From Fibrobacteria bacterium (GTDB lineage: Bacteria > Fibrobacterota > Fibrobacteria > UBA11236), in contig JBJHDK010000003.1 in the NCBI GenBank assembly GCA_050486505.1, forward strand, positions 8,287 through 72,286: a DNA stretch of 64,000 nucleotides, given 5' to 3'. The notes under the pieces were generated by a model that had not been told where the DNA came from, searched no databases, and saw nothing but the letters and a program-made list of their open reading frames with translations. The stretch's first letter is position 1, and each line of letters begins with the position of its first letter. The position numbers were made by a program, and so were the translations under genes. Positions 4,328 to 63,537 of this stretch are shown here, piece by piece.

Positions 4328-4625
4328 GCGCCGTGAAGGTAGGAAAAGGGGCTGCTGCATTGGATGCCATAGCCCTTTTCATGGAGTTTGCGGCGGGCTG
4401 ATGTCTTCGTTTCGCCGGACTGCGGACGCGCCATGCGGCGTCGGCCTCAGTCGCGGTACTCCCGGTACCGCTCCTTCGGTCCTCCTGGCCTGACACGTCC
4501 TCGTTCCGGCGCCCCTGTTCGGCAGAGAAGTTGTCTTCATGACCGTCGCGAGCGTCGCCCTGTTTTGCCTTGTCGTCCGTCCCGCATCTGTGCCTGCTTG
4601 CCCTTACAGGTCTACCTTTGGGCCC

Positions 4626-6125
4626 ATGCACAAGCACATCGAAGCTCTCCGTAAATCCGCCCGCGAGATCGGCGCGCTGCGGTCCGCCGCCGGCTTGCTC
4701 GGCTGGGACCAGGAAACCTTCATGCCCCCGCACGGCGGAGCGGCGCGCGCCGAGAGCCAGGCCGCCCTGGGCGCGCTCATCCACCGCCTGCTCACGTCCG
4801 ATGCGCATTGGCGTCTCATCGAAGACGCGTCCGCAATGGACCTTGCGCCGCGCGAGCGCGCATTGGTGCGGGAGCTGCGCCGCGATGCAGAGGACGCGCG
4901 CAAGGTTCCGGCGGACCTCGCGGAGGACCTCGCGCGCACGGCCTCGCTGGCGCAACAGGCGTGGTCGAAGGCGCGCGCCGCCGACGGAGGCAAGGGCGCG
5001 CCCGCGGAGTTTCTGCCGTGGCTGCGCAAGATGGTTGCGCTCAAGCGTCGCGAGGCCGAGTGCCTGGCACGCGGCGACTCGGCGTACGATGCGTTGCTCG
5101 ACCAGTTCGAGCCGGGCGCGCGCGTCGCGACGGTGAGCCCCGTGCTCCAAAGCTTGCGCGACGGCCTGGTTCCCCTGCTGAATCGCGTGCTTGCAAAGAG
5201 TCCCCCCGGCTCCCTTTCTGCCGAGCCTTGGGAAGGAAAGGCCTTTCCGCTGGATGCGCAGGCGCGCTACAACGAGCGCCTGCTGCGCGACATGGGGTTT
5301 GATCTCGAATCCGGTCGGCTCGATGCGAGCGCGCATCCTTTCACGCAGGGCATGGCGCCCGGCGACGTGCGTTTGACGACGCGGTATCGCGAGGATGATT
5401 GGCTCAACGCCCCGTTCAGTACTCTGCATGAAGGGGGGCACGGGTTGTACGAGCAAGGGCTTCCGCAAGAAGACTGGGGAACGCCGCTGGGCGAGGCGAC
5501 CTCGCTGGCGATCCATGAGTCTCAGTCGCGCTTCTGGGAGAACCGCGTGGGGCGTTCGCGCGCGTACTGGGAGTTTTGCCTGCCGGTGGCGGGCGAATAT
5601 TTCGGGGGGCTGCTCGCGGGCGCAACGGTGGACGGGGTGCTTGCCCGGGTCAATGCGGTGGAGAGGTCCTTCATCCGCGTGGAGGCGGATGAGATGACAT
5701 ACAACCTCCATGTGCTGCTGCGCTTCCAGCTCGAGGAGGCGATTTTCTCCGGTGCTCTCGAAGTCGAGGGACTATCTGCCGCATGGGATGAAGGAATGGA
5801 GAAGCTCCTGGGCATTCGTCCGCCCGATGCCGCGCGCGGATTTTTGCAGGACGTGCATTGGAGCTGCGGGTTGTTCGGGTACTTTCCGACCTACACGTTG
5901 GGGAACCTGTACGCGGCGCAGTTCGCGGCGGCGATGGAGAGTGATCTCGGTGATCTCGACACGAAGATTAGAGTCGGCGACTTCGCGCCGATGCGGGACT
6001 GGTTGCGCGAAAACATCCATCGGCACGGCCGGGAGTTTTCCGCCGCCGAGCTGTGTCTCCGCGCGACGGGCAAGGAACTTGATGCGTCACATTTTCTGCG
6101 TTATCTGGAAGGGAAGTACCTGTGA
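4626..6125 (+). CDS. Carboxypeptidase Taq-type (M32) metallopeptidase
   Basis: M32 signatures HEGGHGLYEQG (HExxH) and IHESQSRFWEN. Start taken at MHKHIEALRKS. Confidence 0.85.
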   Translation: MHKHIEALRKSAREIGALRSAAGLLGWDQETFMPPHGGAARAESQAALGALIHRLLTSDAHWRLIEDASAMDLAPRERALVRELRRDAEDARKVPADLAEDLARTASLAQQAWSKARAADGGKGAPAEFLPWLRKMVALKRREAECLARGDSAYDALLDQFEPGARVATVSPVLQSLRDGLVPLLNRVLAKSPPGSLSAEPWEGKAFPLDAQARYNERLLRDMGFDLESGRLDASAHPFTQGMAPGDVRLTTRYREDDWLNAPFSTLHEGGHGLYEQGLPQEDWGTPLGEATSLAIHESQSRFWENRVGRSRAYWEFCLPVAGEYFGGLLAGATVDGVLARVNAVERSFIRVEADEMTYNLHVLLRFQLEEAIFSGALEVEGLSAAWDEGMEKLLGIRPPDAARGFLQDVHWSCGLFGYFPTYTLGNLYAAQFAAAMESDLGDLDTKIRVGDFAPMRDWLRENIHRHGREFSAAELCLRATGKELDASHFLRYLEGKYL

Positions 6126-6973
6126 ATTCGATCTTGCTTGTGCAGTGCGGGGATCGTGCCGGCATCGTGGCCGGGTTGTCCGGATGGGTTCACGAGAACG
6201 GTGGCAATATTCTCGACGCGGACCAGCACACCGACCCCGACACGGGACAGTTCTTCATGCGCATCGAGTTCGACCGCGGCCGCTTTCGGCTTGATGCAGG
6301 GCAAACGCGCGTCTCCCTGCAGGGGCTCGGCGCCCGTCTTGGGATGTCCTGGTTGTTGCATGATGCCGGAGCCCTGCCGCGCGTGGCGGTGTTCGCGAGC
6401 AAGACTCCGCATTGCCTTTATGACCTCCTGCTCAACCGGCAGCTGGATGAGCTTCCCGGCGAGATCGCGATGGTGATTTCGAACCATCCGGATGTCGGCG
6501 AAGTCGCCCGCCACTTCTCGGTTCCGTTTCACCACATTCCCGTGGAGGAACAGGGAAAGATGGAGGCCGAGAAGCGGCAGCGGCAACTATTGCGCAACGA
6601 GGGCGTGGATCTTGTCGTGCTGGCTCGCTACATGCAGGTGTTGTCGCCCGAATTCGCCGCGGAATGGGAGGGGCGGGCGATCAATATCCACCACTCGTTT
6701 CTCCCGGCCTTCGCGGGGGCGCGCCCCTACCATCAGGCGAAGGAACGCGGGGTGAAGCTCATCGGTGCGACGGCGCACTATGTGACGTCCGATCTAGACG
6801 AGGGGCCGATCATCGCGCAGGCGACGACGGCGGTGACGCACCGCGACGCGGTGTCGGACATGGTGCGGAAAGGCCGCGATCTCGAACGGAGCGTCCTCAC
6901 CCGCGCGGTGCGGTTGCACCTGCAGCACCGCGTGCTGACGTCGGGACGGCGGACGGTTGTGTTTGGGGAGTAG
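6122..6973 (+). CDS. purU: Formyltetrahydrofolate deformylase
   Basis: N-terminal ACT-like domain plus a formyltransferase domain (HHSFLPAFAGARPYHQA). GTG start overlaps the M32 stop. Confidence 0.9.
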   Translation: MNSILLVQCGDRAGIVAGLSGWVHENGGNILDADQHTDPDTGQFFMRIEFDRGRFRLDAGQTRVSLQGLGARLGMSWLLHDAGALPRVAVFASKTPHCLYDLLLNRQLDELPGEIAMVISNHPDVGEVARHFSVPFHHIPVEEQGKMEAEKRQRQLLRNEGVDLVVLARYMQVLSPEFAAEWEGRAINIHHSFLPAFAGARPYHQAKERGVKLIGATAHYVTSDLDEGPIIAQATTAVTHRDAVSDMVRKGRDLERSVLTRAVRLHLQHRVLTSGRRTVVFGE

Positions 6974-6976
6974 TTG

Positions 6977-6998
6977 AGTGACGAGTTACGAGTGAAGA
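6977..6998. repeat. Solo partial copy of the ACGAGTT-type heptamer repeat (shares TGACGAGTTACGA with the element at 10748)
   Basis: A 13-mer identical to the left arm of the 10748..10900 element. Lies between the convergent purU and ABC ATPase genes. Confidence 0.3.
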
Positions 6999-7879
6999 TG
7001 CGTTTCGGGATTTCGTGCAACTTCTCCCCGCTTCTCCATCCTCGGCACCGCATCGAGAAGCGTCCGCGTATACGGATGCTGCGGGTTCGCGAAAAGCTCC
7101 GCCGTCGGGCCTTCCTCGACCACCTTCCCCGCGTTCATCACCAACACCCGGTCCGCGATCGCGCGCACAAGGGACAGGTCGTGCGTGATGAACAACAGCG
7201 CCAGGCCCTCCTCGCGCTTCAGGTCGAGCAACAGGTTCACGATCTGCGCCTGCACCGACACGTCGAGTGCCGAGACCACCTCGTCGCACACGATCAGCTT
7301 CGGCTTGAGCCCCAGCGCGCGGGCGATGCACAGGCGTTGGCGCTGACCTCCCGAGAACGCGTGCGGGAAGCGCCCCAGTGCATCCTCGGGGAGCCCGACG
7401 CGATGCAGCAGTTCCGCCGCGGCGGCCTTCAACCCGGATGCGGGAACCATCTTGTGGGTGCGCAGCGGCTCCGCGAGCAACTCGAAGACAGTCAACCGTG
7501 GGTTGAGCGCCGTGTAGGGATCCTGAAAGATGATCTGGAAGTCGCGGCGGTGCGGCTTCCACGCGGAGGGATTCGTCGTGTCGATGCGCTTCCCCGAAAG
7601 GGTGATGTCTCCGGAGGTGGGCTGGGTCAGTCCCAACAGGGAGAACCCCAAGGTGCTCTTGCCGCAACCTGATTCCCCCACCAATGCCACGATCTCTCCC
7701 GGAAAGATTTCCAGTGACACGCCGTCGACCGCGCGCACGTGATCGACGGTGCGCTGCAGCAACCCGCCCGTGATCGGGAACCAGGTACGGAGGTTCCGTG
7801 CGGACAGCAGAGATCGGGGCGAATGGGTCTTGTTTCCCTCCAAGCTCTTGCCTCCTGTCTCATTGCCGATGTCAGCCAC
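6986..7879 (-). CDS. Peptide/nickel ABC transporter ATP-binding protein (DppF/OppF-like)
   Basis: Walker A GESGCGKST, signature LSGGQRQR, and the C-terminal oligopeptide-transporter domain. Likely GTG start at 7879 behind a GGGGGAA RBS, overlapping the upstream stop (GTGGCTGA). The longest ORF runs to 7912. Confidence 0.8.
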   Translation of the reverse strand: MADIGNETGGKSLEGNKTHSPRSLLSARNLRTWFPITGGLLQRTVDHVRAVDGVSLEIFPGEIVALVGESGCGKSTLGFSLLGLTQPTSGDITLSGKRIDTTNPSAWKPHRRDFQIIFQDPYTALNPRLTVFELLAEPLRTHKMVPASGLKAAAAELLHRVGLPEDALGRFPHAFSGGQRQRLCIARALGLKPKLIVCDEVVSALDVSVQAQIVNLLLDLKREEGLALLFITHDLSLVRAIADRVLVMNAGKVVEEGPTAELFANPQHPYTRTLLDAVPRMEKRGEVARNPETHLHS

Positions 7880-8855
7880 TCGTTCCCCCCTGATACAAAT
7901 GGCACGCCACATGATGCCCGGTGTGCGCCTCCGTCCATGCAGGGTCGGTCGTGCAAGGGTCGAAGACGCGCGGGCAGCGGTCGTGGAAGCGACACCCCGC
8001 GGGATAGCGCCCCGGCGGGGGGACGGATCCGGGAATGGGGCGGGGGATGGCGCCGGTTTCGAGGTTGGGCAGCGCGTCGAGCAGGCCGCGCGCGTACGGA
8101 TGCAGCGGATCCCGCAACAGGTCGAGCGCGGGCCCCGATTCGACGACGCGGCCGGCGTACATCACCGCCGCACGATCTGCGTACTGGGCGACGAGGTTGA
8201 GGTTGTGCGTGATCAGCACGATGCCGGTGCCGGTCTCGCGGCGGAGTTCCGCCAGCAGGTCGAGGATTTGCGCCTGAATGGTCACGTCGAGCGCGGTGGT
8301 CGGCTCGTCGGCGAGGATGAGCTTCGGCTTGAGCAACAGGGCGTGCGCGATGAGCACACGCTGCAGCATGCCGCCCGAGAGCTCGTGGGGGTAGGAGCGC
8401 AGCACGCGGTCGGGGTCGCGGAAGCCCACGCGGTCGAGCAGCTCGCGGATGCGCGTCGCGGGGTCTCCCGCGTGTTTATGGTGCCGGAAGGGGAAGCGCA
8501 GCTGCGTGCGAATGGTCTGCAGGGGGTTCATCGCGGCCGACGGCTCCTGGAAGATCATGGCGATGTCGGCTCCGCGTGTCGCGCGCATCTCGTCGGGCGG
8601 GAGCCGCAGCAGGTCGCGCCCGCGATAGAGCGCGCGGCCCGAGAGCACGACCGTGGAGTTCGCGGGCAGAAGCCGCAGCAGGCCGAGGCAGGTGACGGTT
8701 TTGCCGCATCCCGACTCGCCGACGAGCCCGAAGATCTCGCCTTCCCTGACGTCGAAGGACACGCCGTCGGTCACGGGTGTCACGCGCCCTTCGTCCCGGA
8801 AACCGAGCGAGAGGTTCTCAACACGCAGCAGGGGTTCGTTCGACGCGGCGGGCAT
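7872..8855 (-). CDS. Peptide/nickel ABC transporter ATP-binding protein (DppD/OppD-like)
   Basis: Walker A GESGCGKT, signature LSGGMLQR, and the C-terminal HPYARGLL oligopeptide domain. Confidence 0.8.
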   Translation of the reverse strand: MPAASNEPLLRVENLSLGFRDEGRVTPVTDGVSFDVREGEIFGLVGESGCGKTVTCLGLLRLLPANSTVVLSGRALYRGRDLLRLPPDEMRATRGADIAMIFQEPSAAMNPLQTIRTQLRFPFRHHKHAGDPATRIRELLDRVGFRDPDRVLRSYPHELSGGMLQRVLIAHALLLKPKLILADEPTTALDVTIQAQILDLLAELRRETGTGIVLITHNLNLVAQYADRAAVMYAGRVVESGPALDLLRDPLHPYARGLLDALPNLETGAIPRPIPGSVPPPGRYPAGCRFHDRCPRVFDPCTTDPAWTEAHTGHHVACHLYQGGTSG

Positions 8856-8916: not shown

Positions 8917-9759
8917 ATGCCCGCCGCGCCGGTGAACATCTTCCTCGAAACCGCGATCGACGCCGTGCGTGCCGCGGGTGCGGTGGCGCTGCGTCGCCGG
9001 GCCGCGTTGGGTCCCGCACGCTTCAAGGGCGAAAAGGACCTCGTCACCGACGCCGACATCGAATGCGACGGGCTCATCCGCGCGAAGATCCTCGAGCGCT
9101 TCCCCGGCCACGACCTGCTCACCGAAGAAGAAGGCGCGCTCGACCAAGGCAGCGCCTGGCGCTGGCTCGTCGACCCGATCGACGGTACCATCAACTATTC
9201 CCGGGGAATCCCGCTGTGGGGAGTTTCCGTCGGTCTTGCGCACGAGGGGCGCATGCTGTGCGGCGCGATATACCTCCCCGTGTTCGACGAACTCTTCACC
9301 GCCGTCGCGGGCGGCGGAGCCACCCTGAACGGAGAGCCGATCCGGGTGGCCCCCCGGTCCGACCTCTCCACCGCCATCGTGTCGCACGGTGATTTCAACG
9401 TCGGCGCCGACGACAACGCGCGCCGCGACCTCAACGCCGCCAACTTCTGGGGCCGCATGCGCACCGTCTCCGGCGTGCAGCGCGTGAAGTGCCTCGGTTC
9501 CGCAGTGGTCGAGGGCGCTTACGTCGCCTGCGGCCGCATGGACGGCTATTGGATGGGGTATCTCAAGCCCTGGGACGTCGCCGTCACCAGCCTGCTCGTC
9601 ACCGAGGCGGGCGGCCGTGTCACCGACCTTGCCGGCAAGCCGTGGACGCTCGAGTCGCGCACGATCTTGTTCTCCAACGGAACGCTGCACGACGCCTTGC
9701 TCGAAGCGCTGTCGTGGGATCGCAGGAAGTTTCCGGAAACATCGGAAGGGAAGGCATGA
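8917..9759 (+). CDS. suhB: Inositol monophosphatase family protein
   Basis: IMPase motifs DPIDGT and WDVA. ATG at 8917. Confidence 0.8.
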   Translation: MPAAPVNIFLETAIDAVRAAGAVALRRRAALGPARFKGEKDLVTDADIECDGLIRAKILERFPGHDLLTEEEGALDQGSAWRWLVDPIDGTINYSRGIPLWGVSVGLAHEGRMLCGAIYLPVFDELFTAVAGGGATLNGEPIRVAPRSDLSTAIVSHGDFNVGADDNARRDLNAANFWGRMRTVSGVQRVKCLGSAVVEGAYVACGRMDGYWMGYLKPWDVAVTSLLVTEAGGRVTDLAGKPWTLESRTILFSNGTLHDALLEALSWDRRKFPETSEGKA

Positions 9760-10742
9760 TGGGGGCCACCTCCGCAGACGCGGCGTCGTTCGGGTACGTC
9801 GACATCTCGCCCGCCCTGCGCGAGGTGCTCGCGCGCGGCGGCACGCGGGACGCCCCGCTTTCCCTCGCGGGGTCGGCCGGGTCGGGCAGGGCGTACTACC
9901 GCGTGCACGGCACGGGCCTCGTGCTGCTGGTCTCCCCGGACGAGGACGCCGACTTCGGCCGCTTTCTGCGCATCACCCAGTTCTACCGCATGCTGCGCGT
10001 GCCCGTGCCGCGTGTCCACGCCGTGGACGACGCCGCGCGCCAGGTGTTGCTCGAGGACCTGGGAGAACGCCGGCTCTATGACGTCCTCAAGTCCGACCGG
10101 GCCGCGGGCCTCGGGGCCTACCAAAAGGCGCTCGCGATCCTGGCCGACTTGCAGGGGCGCTGCGACCCCTTCCGCGACGAATGTCCCGACATCAAGTCGC
10201 GCGTATTCGACACGTCGCAGTTGCTGTGGGAAACAGGGTATTATCGCGCCCACTATCTTGAAGCTTACCGCGGCTTGCGTCCCGCGCCCGCGATGCAGGA
10301 GGCCTTCGACCGGCTCGCGGCCCGCGTCGATACGCACCCCAAGGTCATCATGCACCGCGACTTCCAGTCGCAAAACCTGATGGTGAAGCCCGATGAATCG
10401 GTGCACGTCATCGATTATCAGGGAAGCCGGCTCGGTTCGATGTTCTACGACGCGGCCTCGCTGTTGCTCGATCCCTACGTGATGCTTGCGGATGATGAAA
10501 TCGAGGGACTTCTGCGCGGCTTTCACGCCGCACGCGGCGGGGGCACGGGGTTTTCGGCGTTCCGCACCGCCTTCCTCGAAGCGGGCCTGCAGCGTGTCAT
10601 GCAGGCGCTCGGCGCGTATTGTTTCCTGTCGCGGGTCAAGGGGCTCGCGGCCTTCGCGGACCACATCCCGGCAGGGGAGGAAAGGCTGCGGTGGCTTGTC
10701 CGGGAAACAGGCGGTGACTGGAAGGCCTTGCTGCCGGATTAA
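9756..10742 (+). CDS. Phosphotransferase (APH/choline-kinase fold), possibly an anomeric sugar kinase
   Basis: Catalytic motif HRDFQSQNLMV and IDYQGS. The ATGATG start overlaps the suhB stop. Confidence 0.7.
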   Translation: MMGATSADAASFGYVDISPALREVLARGGTRDAPLSLAGSAGSGRAYYRVHGTGLVLLVSPDEDADFGRFLRITQFYRMLRVPVPRVHAVDDAARQVLLEDLGERRLYDVLKSDRAAGLGAYQKALAILADLQGRCDPFRDECPDIKSRVFDTSQLLWETGYYRAHYLEAYRGLRPAPAMQEAFDRLAARVDTHPKVIMHRDFQSQNLMVKPDESVHVIDYQGSRLGSMFYDAASLLLDPYVMLADDEIEGLLRGFHAARGGGTGFSAFRTAFLEAGLQRVMQALGAYCFLSRVKGLAAFADHIPAGEERLRWLVRETGGDWKALLPD

Positions 10743-10747
10743 GCCAA

Positions 10748-10900
10748 TGACGAGTTACGAAATACGAATTACGAATTACGAGTTACGAATGACACGAAGG
10801 GCGTTCGAATCTTGGAACCGATGTTCCTGTCCGCCTTATGTCCTGGCGTTTTGATTCGTTCCTTGTTTTCCGTAATTCGTAACTCGTAATTCGTAATTTT
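10748..10900. repeat. MITE-like inverted-repeat element. Arms of 30-45 bp are built from tandem heptamers ACGA(G/A)TT, separated by an AT-rich spacer of about 76 bp
   Basis: Left arm tgacgagttacgaaatacgaattacgaattacgagttacgaatgac. Right arm cgtaattcgtaactcgtaattcgtaatt is its reverse complement. Intergenic, between the kinase and dUTPase genes. Confidence 0.55.
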
Positions 10901-30701: not shown

Positions 30702-30751
30702 CCCCGGGCAGGCGCCCCTTCAGGATCCCCCCGCATCAGCTCCCCTGTGCC

Positions 30752-30805
30752 CTGGTCCTTGCATCGAAAAAGCCTCCGTGGGGAGGCTTTTTTGATGCAA
30801 GGACC
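30752..30805. terminator. Bidirectional terminator: extended palindrome GGTCCTTGCATC-G-AAAAAGCCTCC-gtgg-GGAGGCTTTTTT-GATGCAAGGACC
   Basis: Hairpin with A and T tracts on both sides, between convergent genes. Confidence 0.6.
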
Positions 30806-30815
30806 AGGTTTCGCT

Positions 30816-38687: not shown

Positions 38688-38705
38688 TCCTGCATCCGCA
38701 ACCAA

Positions 38706-38739
38706 CAAAAAACCCTCCGCCTCAGGCGGAGGGTTTTTT
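38706..38739 (+). terminator. Rho-independent terminator (A6-CCCTCCGCC-tca-GGCGGAGGG-T6)
   Basis: Perfect hairpin flanked by A and T tracts after rpsD. Confidence 0.7.
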
Positions 38740-38818
38740 GTTGGGCGATTTCCGGGATCCCCTGCGAAGGCGTGGCGGCGCAGGGTTCCCCCGCGCTTTT
38801 GTCTTCCGGTCGATTCGT

Positions 38819-39274: not shown

Positions 39275-41514
39275 CGTGACAAGTTACGTTCGCGTTCGGA
39301 AACGGGGGGGAGGAATTCGAACAAAACAATTCCCGAACAGCGTCCGCGCCGCGATTCGAGGTAATCCGCGAGGCTTTCGGAGGCGACGCGACCGCGCAGC
39401 TGGCTGGCGTGACGAAGCATCGGGACGCCGCCGCGCGCATCGACGAAACCGGTATGTGTGGCATCGAGACCTTCGCGGTCGGTCAGGAAGGCGATGCCGA
39501 GAAAGCGGTCGCCGAGGGTCCAGTTCCGTGCCAGGCGAAGCGCTTCCTCGTAGGGAAGCTGCCTGATCTCGGCGGTGAGGTCGGGGCCCGTGACGCCCTT
39601 GCCCGCGAGCAGTTGCCTGCGATGGAGCGTCTTGCGGAACACCGTGTCGCCGGGGAGTTCGAGCACGCGGAAGTCGTCGGGGTTGTTGGCGAGCCATTCA
39701 CCGACGAAGTAGTGGTTGCGGTTCTCGTAGCTGACGGTGTCACCACGGTAGCGAAAGGGAATGATCGCGGGTACCAGATCGGCAGCGCGGCGCACCCGCG
39801 CCAGGCCGAGAACGGCTTCCATGTAGGTGACGCAGTCCATGCGCTCCATGTCGACGATCGGCAGCGGATCGACATCGGCGTGGCGCCCCTCGCCGGTGGG
39901 GCCGAGGAAGTAAGGGGTTCCTTCGAGCTCCTTCGAGAAGTGGCGCAGGCGCTCGGCGTACCCGCGCGGGACATCGGGCCGGTTCAGCAACGTATGGGCG
40001 CGCGCGGCTGCAGGGCGTTCCTTGTTGTACCACAGGGCGGTGCGCATCAACAGCGTGTCGAGCAGGTCCGCTGCGGGTGCAGAGGGGCCGGCGAAGTTGT
40101 TCAGAAGCAGGGTGGCCGCCAGGGTGTCGCCATCGAGGGCGAAAACGTATCCGCTGAGGCCGGAGACGCCGTTGAGCGACCCGGTCTTGTAGCGTGCCAT
40201 GCCGCTGCCGGTGAAGCCGCGCAGCCGTGCCCCGGTGGCTCCGTCGAGGCCGGGCTGGGCGAGCGAGGCGATGTAGTCCCCGCCGTCGGGGTGACGGGCC
40301 ATGCGGGCGAGCAGCCCGGTGAGGGCGCCGGCCTGCAGGCGGTTGCGATCCGAAAGGCCGCTGCCGTCGTGAAGTTCGAACGCTCGGGGATCGACGCCCT
40401 GCCGCGCGACGAAGTCCATGGCAGCCGTGATGCCCGCCTTTGCCGTGCCCTCGCCCTTGATCCTCTTGCCGAGATGGCGCACGAGACGCTCCGCATGGAG
40501 GTTCTGGCTGCGTTGGTTCACCTCGTCGATCAGGGAGATCATGGGGGCCGTGGTGAACCGGTACTCTCGCAGGAGGGGAGCCGTGGCCGCGCCGTCCTCC
40601 GCGATGAAGCGGATGCCCGAAGAGTCCAGCGCGGCGAGTAGCGCGCGGCGGAAGTATTCCGGAGGGTTGCGCACGGGAAAGACCCAGGTGCGCGGCGCGG
40701 CTCCCGCACCCACAGTCCCGGTGAGGATGACATCGGACACATCGTCGCGCAGGGTGAGCGTCACGCCGTGGCGCGCGCCCTGCACCGTGCGGGCCTGGTT
40801 CACCACGCGGACGTGGCCCACGTCGGGATCCAGCGCAAAGGCGGCGGGAACACCCGGGCGCTCTCCGGGGCCCACGGTGATTTCGTAGGCGTTGTCGTTG
40901 TACGACAGGGCCGATACCTCGGCACCGTACCACGCATTGAAATGCCGCTCCGGCCAGGCGGCGGGGCGATGCGGTCCTGTGAAGAAGGTGTCGAGCGCGA
41001 CCACGCTCCCCCGTACGGTGTCGATGCCGAGCGCCCGCAGCGAGTCGGCCCAGACGCGCAAGGGTGCGAGAGCGTCCGGGTAAAAGCGTTTCGAAACGTT
41101 GGGGTCGCCGCCGCCGACGGCGCGCAGGGTTCCGTGGAGCGTGCGCCCGCGCAGGGTTCCAGCGACTTCCAGCGTGGTGTATGGGGCCGCGTCCACGGGA
41201 AAGGCCTCGATCGCCGCGGCGGTGATGACGAGCTTGGCCGTGGACGCGGGCACGAAGGGAACGGTGTCGTTCTGCCGCGCCTCGAAACGACCGTGCCGCA
41301 GGGAATACACTGAGACGGCAAGATCTCCGCCGATGCCGGAACGCGCGTGCACTTCGCGAAGTTCCTTCAGCAGCAGGGGGGACGCTTCGCCGTGCCAGCT
41401 GCGCGAGGGGGTGTACTCCGCGTCGCGCGCGCCTTCGGCCCCCCCGGCGGAGGCGCAGGAGGCGAGGACGAGGAGGGAGAGCAGGGGGAGGAGACGGGTG
41501 ACGGGCGCGACCAC
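39271..41514 (-). CDS. dacB: Lipoprotein fusing a D-Ala-D-Ala carboxypeptidase/endopeptidase (PBP4/S13) with a C-terminal DUF1460 (amidase-like) domain
   Basis: S13 motifs (PASTAKL, SGLSDRN, KTGSL) in the N-terminal half. C-terminal about 250 aa resemble DUF1460 (VDMERMDCVTYMEAVLGLA...NHYFVGEW). Proposed GTG start at 41514 with a GGAG RBS gives the lipoprotein signal MVAPVTRLLPLLSLLVLASC. The longest ORF extends to 41709. Confidence 0.7.
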   Translation of the reverse strand: MVAPVTRLLPLLSLLVLASCASAGGAEGARDAEYTPSRSWHGEASPLLLKELREVHARSGIGGDLAVSVYSLRHGRFEARQNDTVPFVPASTAKLVITAAAIEAFPVDAAPYTTLEVAGTLRGRTLHGTLRAVGGGDPNVSKRFYPDALAPLRVWADSLRALGIDTVRGSVVALDTFFTGPHRPAAWPERHFNAWYGAEVSALSYNDNAYEITVGPGERPGVPAAFALDPDVGHVRVVNQARTVQGARHGVTLTLRDDVSDVILTGTVGAGAAPRTWVFPVRNPPEYFRRALLAALDSSGIRFIAEDGAATAPLLREYRFTTAPMISLIDEVNQRSQNLHAERLVRHLGKRIKGEGTAKAGITAAMDFVARQGVDPRAFELHDGSGLSDRNRLQAGALTGLLARMARHPDGGDYIASLAQPGLDGATGARLRGFTGSGMARYKTGSLNGVSGLSGYVFALDGDTLAATLLLNNFAGPSAPAADLLDTLLMRTALWYNKERPAAARAHTLLNRPDVPRGYAERLRHFSKELEGTPYFLGPTGEGRHADVDPLPIVDMERMDCVTYMEAVLGLARVRRAADLVPAIIPFRYRGDTVSYENRNHYFVGEWLANNPDDFRVLELPGDTVFRKTLHRRQLLAGKGVTGPDLTAEIRQLPYEEALRLARNWTLGDRFLGIAFLTDREGLDATHTGFVDARGGVPMLRHASQLRGRVASESLADYLESRRGRCSGIVLFEFLPPVSERERNLSR

Positions 41515-41525
41515 CAGTCTCCGCA

Positions 41526-41547
41526 GGGGCGACCCATGGGTCGCCCC
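41526..41547. repeat. REP-like palindrome copy 4 (GGGGCGACCCATGGGTCGCCCC, a perfect 22-mer)
   Basis: Shares the GGCGACC/GGTCGCC core. Lies in the aroA-dacB intergenic region under the proposed dacB start. Confidence 0.5.
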
Positions 41548-41591
41548 TACAGGACGCCCGTCACCCGTCTGCCACCCACAGCCTCTGCCTT

Positions 41592-50289: not shown

Positions 50290-51195
50290 TCAGTCGCCGG
50301 GGTTGAGTCCCAGCAAGGCGATTCCCGCGACTGCGGCGGCGGCCCCGATCAGGGTGCGTGGCTCGAAGCGTGTGCCGTAGTGCCAGGCGCCCAAGGGCAT
50401 CACGATCAGTGGCGTCATGAACGTGATCGTCGCGACCACGCCGGCGGGCTGGTATTTCATCGCGGCGACATAAAGACTCATGCCGCCGACGGGACCGACG
50501 AGGGTTCCCAGCAGCATGCGCTTGCGTATCCACGGGTCGCGCAAGGTCGCGAAGCTTCGGGGAACGAGCCCGCGTGCGCCGGCGATGGCGAAGATGAGCG
50601 CGGCGGCAGCTCCCACCCGGACAACGGTTGCATCGAGCGGAGAGAGGTCGGGCGCGCGCAGGAAAGCCTCGCGCGCCAGTACGGTGCCCAGCCCGAGGCA
50701 CATCGCCGCGATGACGCCGTTCGACGCGCCGCTCCATGCGCTCGTGTTACCGCCCGCCGGCCGCCATGTCGCGGCTACCAGTCCCGACAGGATGAGGGCC
50801 ATGCCGCCGATCTGCACGAGCGAGAGGATCTCACGCAACCAGAACCATGCGATGACGGCGGTGGCCGCAGGTGCCAGCGAGATCAGCAGGGAGGTACGTT
50901 CGGGTCCGATGTGGTAGAACGAGCGGTACAGATAGTAGTCGCCCAGTCCGAGGCCGACCCAACCCGACAAGGCGAGAAGCAGGACGGCGTCCGCGCCGGG
51001 GAGGCCGCTGTATCCCGAGGCGAGCCGCTGCGCGACACAGAGCGCCAGCAGGAGGGGCATCGCCAGCTGCAGGCGCAGGAGGTTCGTGGCGAACGGGCCG
51101 ATGCGCCGTCCGGTGGCCGTGAAGAAAAACGGCGACAGCGACCACAGGCTGAGGGCGCCGAGAGCGAGGAAAAGGCCGAAGGTGCTGTTCGACAT
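50290..51195 (-). CDS. DMT-superfamily (EamA-like) transporter
   Basis: Ten TM segments in two EamA-like halves. Confidence 0.75.
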   Translation of the reverse strand: MSNSTFGLFLALGALSLWSLSPFFFTATGRRIGPFATNLLRLQLAMPLLLALCVAQRLASGYSGLPGADAVLLLALSGWVGLGLGDYYLYRSFYHIGPERTSLLISLAPAATAVIAWFWLREILSLVQIGGMALILSGLVAATWRPAGGNTSAWSGASNGVIAAMCLGLGTVLAREAFLRAPDLSPLDATVVRVGAAAALIFAIAGARGLVPRSFATLRDPWIRKRMLLGTLVGPVGGMSLYVAAMKYQPAGVVATITFMTPLIVMPLGAWHYGTRFEPRTLIGAAAAVAGIALLGLNPGD

Positions 51196-51218
51196 CAGGG
51201 GTTACCGCGGCGGCGGTC

Positions 51219-51306
51219 AATGGACCCGGTGGACCCGATGGACAGCATGGACTTTATGGACAGAAAATGGATGACCGCCTTGTCCATAAAGTCCATGCTG
51301 TCCATC
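51219..51306. repeat. Perfect 26-bp inverted repeat (GATGGACAGCATGGACTTTATGGACA / TGTCCATAAAGTCCATGCTGTCCATC) embedded in a run of 9-bp ATGGAC-type direct repeats
   Basis: Arms at 51237..51262 and 51281..51306 with an 18-nt spacer. The right arm abuts or overlaps the htpG stop codon. The ATGGAC motif recurs about 7 times with a 9-10 nt period. Confidence 0.6.
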
Positions 51307-53191
51307 AATTTTCGCCGCCGCCCAGCGCTTCCTTCAACAGCCCGTTCACCTTGGCGACGTAGCCTGCCGGGTCGCGGGGTTCCGAGCCCTCGGCGAGCAG
51401 GGCCTGGTCGACGAGCACCGCGTACCAGTCCGTCAGCTTCGCATCCTGCGGGTCGGCTTCGAAGCGGGCTTTCAGACGGGCGATGATGGGATGCTCCGGG
51501 TTGATTTCGAGGATGCGCTTGCTTTCGGGAACCTTCTGGTTCGACATCTTCAGGATGCGCTCCAGGTTCGCCCCGAGCTCGTCCTCGCCCGACACCAGGC
51601 AACAGGGGCTCTCGTCGAGCCGCGAGGTGACCCGTACTTCCTTGAGCGTTTCGCCCATCTTCGCCGCGAAGTCTTCCGTAAACGTCGCGTAGTCGCCCTT
51701 GGCCTTCTCTTCGCGTTCCTTCTCCTCCTTCGTCAGTTCGCCGAGATCAAGCGCGCCCTTGGCCGCGTGCACGAGTTTTTTACCGTCGAAGTCGGGCAGG
51801 GCCTGCACCACCCATTCGTCGATCGGGTCGACGAGGTACAGCACCTCCACGCCCTTCTTGCGGAACACTTCGAGGTGCGGGCTGCCCTCGGCCGCTTTGC
51901 GGCTCTCGGCGGTGAGGTAATAGATGTCCTTCTGCCCGTCCTTCATGTTCACCACATAATCCTGCAGGCCGGTCAGCTCGCCCGCCGCGAGTCGGCCCGA
52001 CTCGAAGCGCAGCAGGCGCGTCAACGCATCGAGGTGTTCCCAGTTCATGTGGAACCCCTCCTTCAGCACCGAGCCGAACTCCTTCCAGAACGCCTTGTAT
52101 TTCTCCGGTTCGTCCTTCGCCAATGTCTCGAGAAGGTTCAGCGACTTGGTCACCGCCGATTCCTGGATCTTGCGCACCACGGCATTCTTTTGCAGGATCT
52201 CGCGCGACACATTGAGCGGCAGATCCTCGGAGTCCACCACGCCGCGCATGAAGCGCAGCCACGACGGCAGCAGTTCCTTGCAGTCATTCATGATGAACAC
52301 CCGCTTCACGTAGAGCGAAAGCCCGTGCGGGCGGTCGGGGTAGAAAAGGTCATGGGGGGCCTTGGAGGGCACGTACAGCAGCGTGGTGAACTCGAGCGTG
52401 CCCTCGACCTTGTTGTGGGACCAAGCCAGGGGAGCTTCCGTGTCGTGGGACAGGTGCTTGTAGAATTCCGCGTGCTGCTCCGCAGACACCTCGCCCTTGG
52501 GGCGGCGCCACAACGGGGCGCGGTCGTTGAGGATCTCTTCCTCGCCCTTGTCGTTCACAAGGGCGATGGGGTGGGTGACATACTCGCTGTACTTCTTCAC
52601 GATCGACCGCACGCGCCAGTCCTCGAGGAACTCCTTCGCGTCGTCCTTGAGGTGCAGCTCGATCACCGTGCCGCGCTTCTCCTTCTCGGTCTCTCCCAGC
52701 GTGAACGTCCCGTCGCCGGTGGATTCCCAGCGCAGGGCCGGGCCGTCTTCCCCGAGGCGTCGCGTCTCCAGGGAGACCCGGTCGGCCACCATGAACGCGG
52801 AATAGAACCCCACGCCGAATTGGCCGATGAGATTGGCGTCTTTCTTCTGGTCTCCGGTGAGCGATTCCAGGAACTTCTTCGTTCCCGAGTTGGCGATGGT
52901 GCCGATGTTGCGGATCACTTCCTCGCGGTTCATGCCGATGCCGTTGTCGATGATGCGCAGGACGCCTTGATCCTTGTCCGCCTCGAGGCGGATCTTGAAG
53001 GCGGAGTCGGCCCCCAACAGTTCCGTGTTCGTCAGCGACTCGAAGCGGGCCTTGTCGATGGCGTCCGAGGCGTTGGACACGAGCTCGCGCAGAAAGATTT
53101 CGCGGTTCGAGTAGAGGGAATGGATCATGAGGTGCAGCAGCTGCCGGACCTCGGTCTGGAACTCCATTTTTTCGGGTGCTTGCGTTGTCAT
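51305..53191 (-). CDS. htpG: Molecular chaperone HtpG (Hsp90)
   Basis: GHKL ATPase N-terminus (LVSNASDAIDKAR, GQFGVGFYS). Length 628 aa. Confidence 0.9.
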   Translation of the reverse strand: MTTQAPEKMEFQTEVRQLLHLMIHSLYSNREIFLRELVSNASDAIDKARFESLTNTELLGADSAFKIRLEADKDQGVLRIIDNGIGMNREEVIRNIGTIANSGTKKFLESLTGDQKKDANLIGQFGVGFYSAFMVADRVSLETRRLGEDGPALRWESTGDGTFTLGETEKEKRGTVIELHLKDDAKEFLEDWRVRSIVKKYSEYVTHPIALVNDKGEEEILNDRAPLWRRPKGEVSAEQHAEFYKHLSHDTEAPLAWSHNKVEGTLEFTTLLYVPSKAPHDLFYPDRPHGLSLYVKRVFIMNDCKELLPSWLRFMRGVVDSEDLPLNVSREILQKNAVVRKIQESAVTKSLNLLETLAKDEPEKYKAFWKEFGSVLKEGFHMNWEHLDALTRLLRFESGRLAAGELTGLQDYVVNMKDGQKDIYYLTAESRKAAEGSPHLEVFRKKGVEVLYLVDPIDEWVVQALPDFDGKKLVHAAKGALDLGELTKEEKEREEKAKGDYATFTEDFAAKMGETLKEVRVTSRLDESPCCLVSGEDELGANLERILKMSNQKVPESKRILEINPEHPIIARLKARFEADPQDAKLTDWYAVLVDQALLAEGSEPRDPAGYVAKVNGLLKEALGGGEN

Positions 53192-54598: not shown

Positions 54599-54606
54599 AG
54601 AGAGGA

Positions 54607-54783
54607 CAATGGGGCAATAGAACAATAGAGCAATGCAACAATAGTACGCAGCTCTACATGGTCACTCCTGTGCGCGGTCTGTGGTACCCGTCTTCGGCTG
54701 CGACTTTGTTGTTTCGCTCTTCCGCCTTTCCGTAGCCTTGTCGCTCTATTGTTCTATTGCCTCATTGTTGCATTGTTCTATTG
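54607..54783. repeat. MITE-like inverted-repeat element. Arms of about 40 bp are built from tandem 8-mers CAATAGAA/CAATGCAA, separated by a 97-bp spacer
   Basis: Left caatggggcaatagaacaatagagcaatgcaacaatag. Right ctctattgttctattgcctcattgttgcattgttctattg. Same architecture as the element at 10748. Lies between convergent genes. Confidence 0.55.
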
Positions 54784-56794: not shown

Positions 56795-56817
56795 ATCGAG
56801 AGACACCCAAAAGGAAA

Positions 56818-56845
56818 AGCCCGGGAAACTCCCGGGCTTTTTTTG
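56818..56845 (+). terminator. Rho-independent terminator (AGCCCGGGA-aac-TCCCGGGCT followed by T7)
   Basis: Perfect hairpin plus T-tract. Confidence 0.65.
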
Positions 56846-56860
56846 TCGTGCGATTCTCCC

Positions 56861-61023: not shown

Positions 61024-63537
61024 TCACTTGCCGATGCGGATGCCGGCGAATGCCCCGGGCCAGAGGCTTACGTTGTCGTTGATGGTGCGGAGGTAGGGGA
61101 GGTCGGTCCCGGTGAGGGGGACGTCGGTATTGATGTGCGTCGCAACGTTGTACGAAATGCCGCCGAAGACGGAGAAGATCGGAGCCGCCTTCCAGCCCAG
61201 CGCGACGCGCAGGCGGGTCCATTCGGTGGTCACGTCCCCGTCGTCGAACGAGAACCCCTTGGGTTCGAACAGTGTGCTGTAGAGGAGATCCGGTTCGACG
61301 AAGAGGGGCGTGCCCGGGATCCCGAAATGGATTCCGGTCCCGAACGTGGGAGCGATCAGGGTTTGGTCCGCGAGAGGACGGGTGCCGACCGCCAGGATCG
61401 AATAGACGGAGCGAACCCCCGTCCTCAGGCCCGCGTACGCCGTTCCGGTTTCATCCGCCCAGGATTGACCGTGAAAGGAACCCTTGCGGCTGATGTTGAC
61501 GAGCCCGATCGGGAAACCCGACTCATAGTCGCTCGAGAGATTGATGAGCCCGATCTGGTGCCCTTGCACGGTGCCGGCAAGGTTCAGCACCCCGGCTCCC
61601 TGTACCCCCTGGAGCGATCCGAAGGCCATGTTGAAAACCCCCGAGGCCTGGACACCCTCGACGCCACCCGCGGCATTGAAAACGCCCGCTCCCTGTCCGC
61701 CCTGGACGCTGCCGGCGGCTGCGTTGAAGATTCCCGCTCCCTGTCCGCCCTGGACGCTGCCCGCGGCCAGGTTGAAGATGCCTGCGCCCTGCCCGCCCTG
61801 TACATTTCCGGCCGCCATATTGAAGATTCCTGAACCCTGTCCGCCGTACACATTCCCTGCGGCCATGCTGAAGATCCCCGCGCCCTGCCCGCCGTGGACG
61901 CCTCCCGCAGCCATGTTGAAAATGCCTGCGCCCTGCCCGCCGTGAACCCCCCCGGCCGACATGTTGAAGATTCCCGCGCCTTGGAGACCGCGAAGGCTGT
62001 CGGCGGAGATGTTGAAGATTCCCGAGAGTTGGCCTCCCCTCACGGTGTCGGCGGAGATGTTGAAAACTCCGGAGCCTTGCCATCCCTCGACACCGCCGCC
62101 GGCGATGTTGAAGATTCCCGCGCCCTGGACCCCGCGGACGGATCCGCCTGCGATCCCGAAGACGCCCGAGATTTGCGCCCCTGAAAGTTCCTCGCCCACG
62201 ATGCTGCCGACCTGGTTGAGTTGGAACCCCCGCAGCCCGCCCTCGACGGCATTGATGCCGACGGCGGCCTGGTATCCCTCCAGGTCACCCCGTGTCCGGT
62301 TGAAGAGGAAGGAAAGCTGTCCTCCCCGCCTGTTGGCGTGCGCGTCGGTCGCCAGCAACGCGATCTGGGTGCCGTGCCAGTCGTGCCTTTGCACGTCGTA
62401 AAAAATCGAGGAAGAAAACCCCGGCTCCCCGTCGTCGGGAACGCGCTGAAACTCTCGCCGCGCCGAAGCCGTGCCGCCGCGTGTCACGGTCGGTTCCCCC
62501 GACACGGGACGGAAGGAGGCGGGGGTGAGCTGCGTGGCCTGCCCTTCCGTCAGGGTGACGCGGGCCATGCTCCAGTCGGCGCCGCGCAGCAGGCGCACGC
62601 TGTAGGTTCCCGGCGCGAGACCGATGCGCATTTCGCGGCCTGCGGGTTTGTTCAGCTCGGCCGCGAGCTGGTCGAGGCTGTCGCGCAGGAAGAGACGGCC
62701 GTGCAGCGCCTCCGGACGCTCGAGGAAGGCCGATGCCTGGCGCAGGTCGGTGAGCACGATGTCGCCGCTGCCGCTGAGCTGGATGTCGTAGGCGGCATGC
62801 TGCGGGCCTCCCCGCGTTCTCTCGGTGCGCGCCAGTGTCTCGTGGTAGGCGAACTGGTAGGCCTCGTGCAGGGTCACGCGCCCGTCGCGCGAGGCGTCGG
62901 CGGCGCCGCGCAATCCCGTGTTCAGCGCATGGGTGAAGAACGATCCGCCCACGCGGTCGCTTTCCTGCGCCACCTCGCTCTCCGAGGAGGAGGTGAGGAT
63001 CGCGTAGCCTTCAGAGCGTGTGGACTGGTCCACGAGAAACGCGGGAACGTGCTGGCCGCCCTTGATGCGCGTCAGCGCGCCCGAGGCGCAGGCATCCACC
63101 ACGGCGATGCGCACGTCGGCATCGAGCCCGTTCATGCCGTCGCGGAAGGACCGGTACGAAAACCCTTCCCTGCCCAGCAGCAGGCCGCGCTCGTCGGCGT
63201 GCCCGGAGTAATACACGATGGCCTCCACGCGTTCTCCCGCGCGCCTCAGCGACGCGGATTGCCTGCGCAGGTCGGAGAAGGCGCGGGCGATGCCTGCGCT
63301 GTCGGGGTCGAGCAGCACCACCGCATCGGCCGGATCGAGCCCGCCGAGCTCCACCAAGGTGCGTTTGAACGCGGCGGCATCGGATCCGGCGTAGAGCAAA
63401 CGCTCACGTCCCTGACCCCCATCGTGGTGCCCGATCAACAGGGCGACGCGCCGGGTGTTGCCGTCACCGGTGAACGCCGGGGAGGGGGTGGCGCTCCAGG
63501 CCAGCGCGCATGCGAGAAACAGGGCGAGGTGTTTCAT
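61024..63537 (-). CDS. Caspase-like (peptidase C14) domain protein with about 15 tandem 16-aa Gly-rich repeats and a C-terminal putative membrane/beta-barrel domain
   Basis: Signal peptide. Caspase His/Cys dyad context (IVYYSGHADE, AVVDACASG). Repeat GAGIFNMAAGxVxGGQ about 15 times. Confidence 0.7.
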   Translation of the reverse strand: MKHLALFLACALAWSATPSPAFTGDGNTRRVALLIGHHDGGQGRERLLYAGSDAAAFKRTLVELGGLDPADAVVLLDPDSAGIARAFSDLRRQSASLRRAGERVEAIVYYSGHADERGLLLGREGFSYRSFRDGMNGLDADVRIAVVDACASGALTRIKGGQHVPAFLVDQSTRSEGYAILTSSSESEVAQESDRVGGSFFTHALNTGLRGAADASRDGRVTLHEAYQFAYHETLARTERTRGGPQHAAYDIQLSGSGDIVLTDLRQASAFLERPEALHGRLFLRDSLDQLAAELNKPAGREMRIGLAPGTYSVRLLRGADWSMARVTLTEGQATQLTPASFRPVSGEPTVTRGGTASARREFQRVPDDGEPGFSSSIFYDVQRHDWHGTQIALLATDAHANRRGGQLSFLFNRTRGDLEGYQAAVGINAVEGGLRGFQLNQVGSIVGEELSGAQISGVFGIAGGSVRGVQGAGIFNIAGGGVEGWQGSGVFNISADTVRGGQLSGIFNISADSLRGLQGAGIFNMSAGGVHGGQGAGIFNMAAGGVHGGQGAGIFSMAAGNVYGGQGSGIFNMAAGNVQGGQGAGIFNLAAGSVQGGQGAGIFNAAAGSVQGGQGAGVFNAAGGVEGVQASGVFNMAFGSLQGVQGAGVLNLAGTVQGHQIGLINLSSDYESGFPIGLVNISRKGSFHGQSWADETGTAYAGLRTGVRSVYSILAVGTRPLADQTLIAPTFGTGIHFGIPGTPLFVEPDLLYSTLFEPKGFSFDDGDVTTEWTRLRVALGWKAAPIFSVFGGISYNVATHINTDVPLTGTDLPYLRTINDNVSLWPGAFAGIRIGK
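61534..62265 (-). repeat. In-frame 48-bp tandem coding repeats (about 15 copies) encoding the GxGIFN 16-aa repeat
   Basis: CTGGACGCTGCCGGCGGCTGCGTTGAAGATTCCCGCTCCCTGTCCGCC-type units recur with 48-nt periodicity. Spurious ORFs appear on other frames here. Confidence 0.6.

Follow-up and report, generated by a model that had tools for sequence, protein, structure and literature searches.

The gap between htpG and eamA is filled by an inverted array of nonamers

We analysed a 64-kb window, that is, the whole stretch of 64,000 nucleotides taken from one contig of an uncultured GC-rich Fibrobacterota bacterium, the HtpG of which finds its best match among GTDB representatives at 80%. Two neighbouring genes on the minus strand of this window are separated by 109 nt, and the gap is filled by a single repeat element, hereafter the htpG-eamA element. 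The upstream gene, htpG (51305..53191; 628 aa; Pfam HSP90 match, 4e-138), ends with a TGA at 51305-51307, and the downstream gene (50290..51195), which encodes a transporter of the EamA family (drug/metabolite transporter, DMT), starts with an ATG at 51193-51195. Within the gap lie two arms of 26 nt each, at 51237-51262 (GATGGACAGCATGGACTTTATGGACA) and 51281-51306, which are 100% complementary and separated by 18 nt. A perfect repeat of this length is unusual, as a preliminary description of this DNA had already recognised, and it is real: an independently assembled Logan contig is identical over 5 kb, element included. This makes an assembler-specific error unlikely, with the proviso that both assemblies could derive from the same source reads.

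Read in the direction of transcription, on the minus strand, the 5' arm (51281..51306; GAUGGACAGCAUGGACUUUAUGGACA) is purine-rich, carries three ATGGAC units and starts inside the htpG stop codon, of which it covers the last two bases. The centre (51263..51280; 18 nt, AGGCGGUCAUCCAUUUUC) includes a degenerate unit (AUCCAU) and, directly 5' of the 3' arm, a run of four U. The latter (51237..51262; UGUCCAUAAAGUCCAUGCUGUCCAUC) is pyrimidine-rich, and the eamA ATG begins 41 nt past it. Two partnerless units, GUCCAC and GUCCAU (51220..51236), prolong the pyrimidine-rich array toward the eamA start, so that it stops 24 nt short of the ATG. They have no pairing partner, since htpG coding sequence directly adjoins the array.

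The repeated unit consists of an ATGGAC core followed by three variable nucleotides, with six units on one side and three on the other. On the plus strand ATGGAC occurs at 51220, 51238, 51247 and 51256, with GTGGAC at 51229 and ATGGAT at 51267; on the minus strand it occurs at 51282, 51291 and 51300. The step is 9 nt, with one of 11. Only 2 of 36 core positions are mismatched, and the spacers read CCG, CCG, AGC and TTT. A period of 9 bp rotates successive units by about 51 degrees, so that they do not lie on one face of the helix as had been proposed. When up to one mismatch was allowed, ATGGACNNNATGGAC matched seven times in the window against 0.25 expected, with six of the seven inside the element. 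The bare hexamer gave 34 matches against 27.6 expected, seven of them in the element, with no enrichment elsewhere, and the 64-kb window holds no second ATGGAC array or copy of the element.

An open reading frame (ORF) of 36 codons (MDSMDFMDKAVIHFLSIKSMLSIGSTGSIDRRRGNP; 51195..51305, minus strand) bridges htpG and eamA exactly, with a TGATG overlap at both ends, and was called as a gene in the Logan contig. Taken at face value, it would encode a real 36-aa protein, translationally coupled between its neighbours. We consider this almost certainly wrong, since all three frames are closed in the corresponding gaps of three relatives (L003, L004 and L005), the product has no Pfam match, and related elements described below have periods of 7 and 8 nt, which cannot code. 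The frame stays open across the element because a 9-nt period guarantees it by construction, and the ORF is probably an artefact of that period. Arrays of short repeats thus yield false small-ORF calls, and can also pass for operators or for MITEs (miniature inverted-repeat transposable elements).

Facing arrays form a recurrent intergenic class

Two further elements of the same architecture are present in the window, both on the plus strand. The first (10746..10898) comprises inverted arrays of a TTACGAR 7-mer, about six copies on one side and four on the other, with a centre of about 75 nt between them; it begins 4 nt past the stop codon of an APH-like kinase gene and ends 32 nt ahead of a dimeric dUTPase gene. 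The second (54606..54783), which follows a DUF502 gene, consists of inverted arrays of a CAAT+N4 8-mer with about 100 nt between them; all five units of either arm share an unchanged CAAT core, and the other four positions are variable. Together with the htpG-eamA element, these inverted pairs are the strongest non-coding tandem repeats of the window. The suggestion that the htpG-eamA hairpin might represent a third MITE-like family was therefore partly right: it does group with the other repeat hairpins of the window, but as the third member of one architectural class rather than as a separate MITE-like family. A possible further member (41485..41577, minus strand), located between aroA and an S13 peptidase/AmiA gene, has arms of two GACGGGT units around a perfect inner hairpin (GGGGCGACCCATGGGTCGCCCC) and probably overlaps the peptidase gene at its start and signal peptide; in L003 the aroA and S13 peptidase genes overlap (ATGA) with no spacer. 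A separate tandem repeat at 61655-62127 has a period of 48 nt, about nine copies and higher-order periods of 96 and 144 nt; it presumably encodes a 16-residue repeat.

We counted inverted repeats with periodic arms and obtained 25 in 1.22 Mb of Fibrobacterota loci versus 0 in 253 kb from other phyla, the latter fetched with the same query. Among the intergenic cases, roughly 20 were convincing, and every one of these has the purine-rich arm first. Species of Fibrobacter contain many heptamer arrays, including TCTCTCG, TAGTGGT, AGTAGAC and TTAGAAC; the cultured F. succinogenes has comparable ones, for instance upstream of uppP and htpG. Where such arrays lie within 80 nt upstream of a start, the sense strand is pyrimidine-rich in 17 cases versus 6, although these cases are not phylogenetically independent. 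Inverted heptamer arrays also occupy one orthologous, divergent intergenic region upstream of a uppP-like gene, beside a conserved GCTACATTTACCCTACTATG (L050 7980-8180; L055 90-300; L067 8720-8880; L068 476-672); their units differ between species, and some of the centres hold small UUCG-loop hairpins. Elsewhere in Fibrobacter, a (GTCTTTC)4 array is found 17-19 nt upstream of the htpG start (L050 9951-9981, L064 9951-9981, L041 4011-4034). This heptamer is close to the one that Bacillus subtilis CspB reportedly prefers to bind, which we mention as a lead only.

The ATGGAC family itself extends further. When metagenomes were scanned for three ATGGAC+N3 units, many of the matches were coding three-codon repeats, but non-coding arrays were also among them, on contigs of 40-73% GC. 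We rejected raw match counts as evidence of enrichment, because a composition-matched control (CAGGTANNN x3) also gave at least 120 matches in the viral scan, and most matches are three-codon coding repeats; the only evidence used from the pattern scans is the non-coding inverted pairs and their polarity. These pairs were convergent ([ATGGACNNN]n ... [NNNGTCCAT]n) in 26 cases, versus one in the reverse order. Their spacers are C-poor on the ATGGAC strand, and complementarity between the spacers of the two arms reaches 60% of positions versus 49% expected from composition (P about 0.001). The arms of ATGGAC pairs are thus related but mostly imperfect, and the perfect copy in the window is unusual. 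Gene context was harder to read, since greedy ORF calling is too noisy on short metagenome contigs rich in GC and arrays with a 9-nt period stay open; a stricter test left 11 usable cases, with a stop codon within 10 nt before the array in five. Searching HtpG and EamA against the ATGGAC metagenome loci found no orthologous gap among them. Overall, the existence of a recurrent intergenic class in which an array of ATGGAC+3-nt nonamers faces its own reverse complement, in Fibrobacterota and elsewhere, is well supported.

Two of the ATGGAC loci may be recorded here in their own right. L167 (52% GC) contains intergenic nested arrays of the 9-mers TATGGGGCT, ATGGACAWT, TCCCATANT and CCCATAAGA, together with GAACTTTA 8-mers and 7-mers (4430-4810, 7390-7620, 8490-8790 and 9650-9940), and these arrays sit in a module of about 300 bp that is present in at least three copies within 3 kb. 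Genes for a 23S rRNA-intervening sequence protein (a four-helix bundle) stand beside two ATGGAC pairs, at L178 (about 6925-7540) and at one other flank.

The conserved core raises the question of whether the arrays are binding sites for a sequence-specific factor. Such a factor, acting on DNA or on single-stranded RNA, would read the core once per 7-9 nt, and the facing orientation would set the geometry. Ribbon-helix-helix repressors and RNA binders of the oligonucleotide/oligosaccharide-binding (OB)-fold or cold-shock type are examples of such repeat readers, and the periods observed, 7, 8 and 9 bp, agree with operator arrays known for ribbon-helix-helix proteins. Consistent with this idea, the core is kept while the spacer varies, both in the htpG-eamA element and at 54606-54783, and the hexamer is invariant in the 18 units of L173; in addition, polarity is strict and the spacers of the ATGGAC family are only partly complementary. 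The heptamer arrays of Xanthomonas likewise conserve positions 1-4 and 6 of their units (Rehm et al, 2015, PMC4692102). However, at least 4-5 cores occur in one genome and at orthologous gaps, so that many factors would be needed. Furthermore, no gene family was enriched beside the 26 paired ATGGAC elements, the neighbours being housekeeping genes; only a single ATGGAC array is present in 64 kb; and the period is out of helical phase. We therefore consider binding by a dedicated factor unlikely. DnaA boxes, PhoB boxes, polar motifs of the Chi/KOPS type, GGA sponges for CsrA and arrays of restriction sites were dropped as candidates, since many cores coexist in one genome.

Architecture and position outlast the unit sequence

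We fetched the htpG loci of relatives and compared their htpG-eamA gaps, with HtpG identity expressed relative to the protein of the window. In L003 and L004 (82% and 81%), the gap contains inverted arrays of an AATCAGA 7-mer around a centre of 55-65 nt, and in L005 (80%) it contains ACAGCA/ACAACA arrays. An AAATATG array follows htpG in L007 (79%), where there is no eamA. The gaps of L009, L011 and L012 (68-75%) contain plain hairpins, and in L010, L014 and L019 (66-72%) the two genes are adjacent and the spacer is absent. This series of array, plain-hairpin and spacerless gaps suggests that htpG and eamA form a conserved tight pair that tolerates a self-folding spacer. Other gaps behave in a similar way: in the window, the arrays of the APH-dUTPase gap are built of TTACGAR, in L210 and L211 they are built of TGACAGC, and L206 and L208 have none. 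After the DUF502 gene, 8-mers with a CAAT core are common to the window and L003 (8340-8510). As far as the gaps compared here can tell, architecture and position are thus shown to persist while the sequence of the unit turns over.

The comparison has some irregular members. In the closest HtpG relative (P0030, 93% identity; L002 1-2748), HtpG stops at residue 494 and unrelated sequence comes next, so that the contig, which is truncated or rearranged there and may be chimeric, offers no orthologous gap. Two of the homologues come from records of metagenome-assembled genomes assigned to Bifidobacterium (L007, about 79% identical to the window protein) and Bifidobacteriales (L020, about 67%), labels that are probably labelling or binning errors. 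Homologues of about 50% identity in records labelled Klebsiella pneumoniae (L077) and Enterobacteriaceae (L081) are too distant to place.

A persisting architecture with a changing unit speaks against a locus-specific operator as well as a simple MITE insertion. The preliminary description had considered, among other things, an operator array controlling the DMT gene. This proposal is not supported, given that unrelated units occupy the orthologous gaps, that the rest of the window shows no enrichment of the hexamer and that the helical-face argument fails.

A MITE or foldback-type miniature mobile element, the inverted ends of which are built of subterminal repeats, would account for the terminal inverted arrays and their fixed inward orientation. 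It would also suit the array-bearing module of L167, as well as two non-orthologous loci, L005 11903-12011 and L210 1413-1521, which have common units (AGCATCACAACATCAC) and a common 15-nt centre (TTCTGCGTTCTATTG); this sharing suggests that some elements may spread or get copied. For the htpG-eamA element, though, the window offers no second ATGGAC copy, the flanks show no visible target-site duplication, the outer units are unpaired with the array abutting htpG coding sequence, and the orthologous gaps contain different families. Nor were transposases enriched near the ATGGAC pairs. Mobility of this kind is, in our judgement, very unlikely to explain it.

The rapid turnover can also be read as the trace of a harmless, functionless by-product, in which repeats beside a hairpin would expand by slippage and palindrome-templated repair would copy them to the other arm; the element would last because it does no harm within a self-folding spacer. 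Several findings would follow naturally: turnover of the unit is fast, as seen between species whose HtpG proteins are about 80% identical, copy number is unequal in the two arms, the units in some arrays of L105 and L162 are perfectly alike, which is what recent slippage would produce, and empty sites exist at htpG-eamA (L010, L014, L019), APH-dUTPase (L206, L208) and aroA-S13 (L003). For the heptamer arrays that they described, Rehm et al (2015, PMC4692102) found no regulatory role. On the other hand, a neutral or selfish process predicts neither the strict purine-first polarity, nor the conservation of core over spacer, nor the placement 0-8 nt after stop codons. In addition, bacterial genomes have a deletion bias, and spacers of 100-190 nt would not be expected to last at one gap in several lineages. 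We regard such a neutral or selfish origin as rather unlikely.

The transcript is predicted to fold from the htpG stop to the eamA start

The sense RNA of the region (51185-51325, minus strand) has a predicted folding energy of -76.3 kcal/mol (z = -7.2). Beyond the 26-bp stem, the minimum free energy structure contains a predicted outer stem, the 5' half of which (51313..51323; GGGCGGCGGCG) lies within the last htpG codons and the 3' half of which (51205..51216; CCGCCGCCGCGG) ends 9 nt upstream of the eamA AUG. In this model the last codons of htpG (GGCGGCGGCG) pair with CGCCGCCGC, 9-20 nt before the AUG. For the corresponding gap of L003, with its unrelated units, the predicted folding energy is -55.6 kcal/mol (z = -7.6), and the hairpin is closed at its base by pairing between the stop region and the AUG region. 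Cleavage by RNase III calls for about 20 bp or more of unbroken double-stranded RNA, and the perfect stem of 26 bp predicted here is compatible with a processing site for this enzyme. No Rfam 15 family matched anywhere in the window at the gathering threshold, and a scan for sigma-70-type promoters gave a single weak match (TGGACA/GAAAAT), which lies on the antisense strand.

A very stable predicted hairpin right at the htpG stop could also serve as a terminator or attenuator of htpG, acting through the hairpin alone or with the assistance of a factor. Its polarity equals that of three canonical terminators in the window, intrinsic and bidirectional, in which A- and T-tracts are paired (30751-30808, 38702-38744 and 56798-56858), and canonical terminator hairpins with T-tracts form the centres of several sister elements (e.g. 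L009 14232 and 20816). However, what comes after the stem on the minus strand is CGGGUCCACC and not a U-tract, and a scan for terminator sites scored nothing at the element, which bears out the earlier statement that this is not a canonical intrinsic terminator. Moreover, the terminators at 30751, 38702 and 56798 indicate that the organism uses ordinary terminators elsewhere, and htpG-eamA is a conserved tight gene pair. Termination without a U-tract is accordingly an explanation to which we give very little weight, even less than to mobility.

Discussion

The results presented above lead us to favour, tentatively and with a probability of about 0.45, a model in which the htpG-eamA element is a slippage-grown, recently homogenised intercistronic stem-loop that acts as RNA in an htpG-eamA co-transcript. 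Both its origin and its action are matters that we infer. According to this model, the stems of terminator-like hairpins would have grown outward by slippage of their outermost segment. Two observations fit such growth: canonical terminators at the centres of sister elements, and a T-run directly 5' of the 3' arm, on the sense strand of the upstream gene, in about 10 of 13 elements of the clade as judged by eye, including CCAUUUUC in the htpG-eamA element. Arrays would then lengthen and shorten by slippage, and inverted duplication or template switching would keep or make the two arms complementary. If correct, the sequence of the unit would turn over fast while architecture and position persist, and the perfect 26 bp of the htpG-eamA copy would reflect recent homogenisation.

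Once transcribed, the stem-loop that starts at the htpG stop, together with the outer GGCGGCGGCG/CGCCGCCGC stem, would close the whole intercistronic spacer. It might thereby protect the 3' end of the htpG message, serve as an RNase III-type processing site and set the htpG stop beside the eamA start, and ribosomes translating the last htpG codons would unmask the region upstream of the eamA start. With the purine-rich arm first, pyrimidine-rich RNA would never be exposed unpaired after the stop codon; this account of the polarity is conjectural.

Several points weigh against this model. The ATGGAC family keeps its hexamer and varies its spacers, the copy numbers of the two arms often differ and the spacers are only about 60% complementary, which looks more like selection on a motif than selection on pairing. 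The folding energies of eight elements favoured the sense strand in four cases and the antisense strand in one, with three ties, so selection at the level of RNA is not demonstrated over selection on DNA or none. The inverted arrays upstream of the uppP-like gene of Fibrobacter lie in a divergent promoter region, to which an intercistronic role cannot apply. Finally, the co-transcript, its processing and an influence on eamA are deduced rather than observed, and the polarity rule has only the conjecture above to explain it.

Given the conserved cores and the purine-first polarity, a factor that reads sequence or a polar repair process stays in play. It is conceivable, though we think it quite unlikely, that facing arrays with conserved cores (ATGGAC+N3, CAAT+N4, GGGAATC and others) and near-absolute purine-first order constitute one widespread and unrecognised bacterial system, of which the htpG-eamA hairpin would be a fresh product. 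The arrays might then be platforms for a factor reading periodic cores of 7-9 nt, or the polar footprint of DNA synthesis and repair, in which repeats would be added to both 3' ends of a break at a hairpin or terminator site and rejoining would give head-to-head arrays. If this reading of the class is true, a common intergenic feature obeys rules that no current model explains: it lies just after stop codons, puts the purine arm first, combines a conserved core with a variable spacer and turns over its unit at a fixed position. Orthologous hairpins of the same structure but different sequence would then provide a natural series for asking whether selection acts on RNA structure, on a motif or on neither.

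Comparison with known repeat systems

Repetitive extragenic palindromic (REP) sequences and the bacterial interspersed mosaic elements (BIMEs) that contain them are the best-known intergenic palindromes, and those between malE and malF of Escherichia coli stabilise the upstream mRNA. REPs share one conserved sequence with a GTAG/CGTC head, occur in hundreds of copies and are mobilised by REP-associated tyrosine transposases (RAYTs). The likeness to the htpG-eamA element lies in their intergenic, often intercistronic, position; REPs are, however, not built of tandem units, and we found no GTAG/CGTC at the ends of the htpG-eamA arms and only a single copy of the element in the window. Bidirectional terminators have the polarity of the htpG-eamA element, with an A- or purine-rich 5' side and a T- or pyrimidine-rich 3' side, and are placed right after genes. 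Relative to intrinsic terminators in general, its stem is much longer, its arms consist of tandem units and the stem lacks a following U-tract.

The operators of ribbon-helix-helix repressors, such as omega of pSM19035 or MetJ with its metboxes, are direct or inverted arrays of 7-8-bp units, each bound by one dimer. These operators lie at the promoters of the regulated operons and use one motif per regulator, whereas the Fibrobacterota elements have many motifs, lie at stop codons and are not linked to a regulator gene. The short tandemly repeated repetitive (STRR) heptamers of cyanobacteria and the TAACTGA repeats resemble the htpG-eamA element as short tandem repeats in intergenic regions close to start codons. 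Those of the TAACTGA type, found in Beggiatoaceae, Cyanobacteria and Bacteroidetes, are intergenic and near starts, with a sporadic phylogeny and no known mechanism (PMC4679880). Unlike the elements described here, STRR and TAACTGA repeats are nearly all direct arrays (one inverted in 170 sets), with one unit per genome, on the forward strand just before starts.

The closest match is to the G-rich heptamer arrays GGGAATC and GGGGAYT of Xanthomonas and Nostoc, the function of which is still to be elucidated (Rehm et al, 2015, PMC4692102). According to the same study, Xanthomonas has 183-186 arrays per genome, including 70-75 pairs that are always convergent; in both genera the arrays are transcribed and mostly intergenic between co-directional genes, and in the same gaps of related species they vary in length and sequence (PMC4692102). 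They also follow a placement rule, in that the purine- or G-rich array lies within 50 bp past a stop on the coding strand, and its complement no more than 50 bp ahead of the following start (PMC4692102). The htpG-eamA element shows the tandem units of 6-9 nt, the conserved core, the convergent orientation and the stop/start placement of such arrays, but it lacks tracts of three or more G. As its unit offers only a GG doublet, the G-quadruplex, which was the focus of that work (PMC4692102), does not apply to it. It further differs in its 9-mer unit and its perfectly complementary arms, and whereas Xanthomonas has one dominant unit per genome, the Fibrobacterota window has its own unit at each locus. 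In the literature searched, we found no report of repeat arrays in Fibrobacter or Fibrobacterota. The htpG-eamA element thus falls into the Rehm-like class of arrays, and would bring to this class a new phylum and a new family of units.

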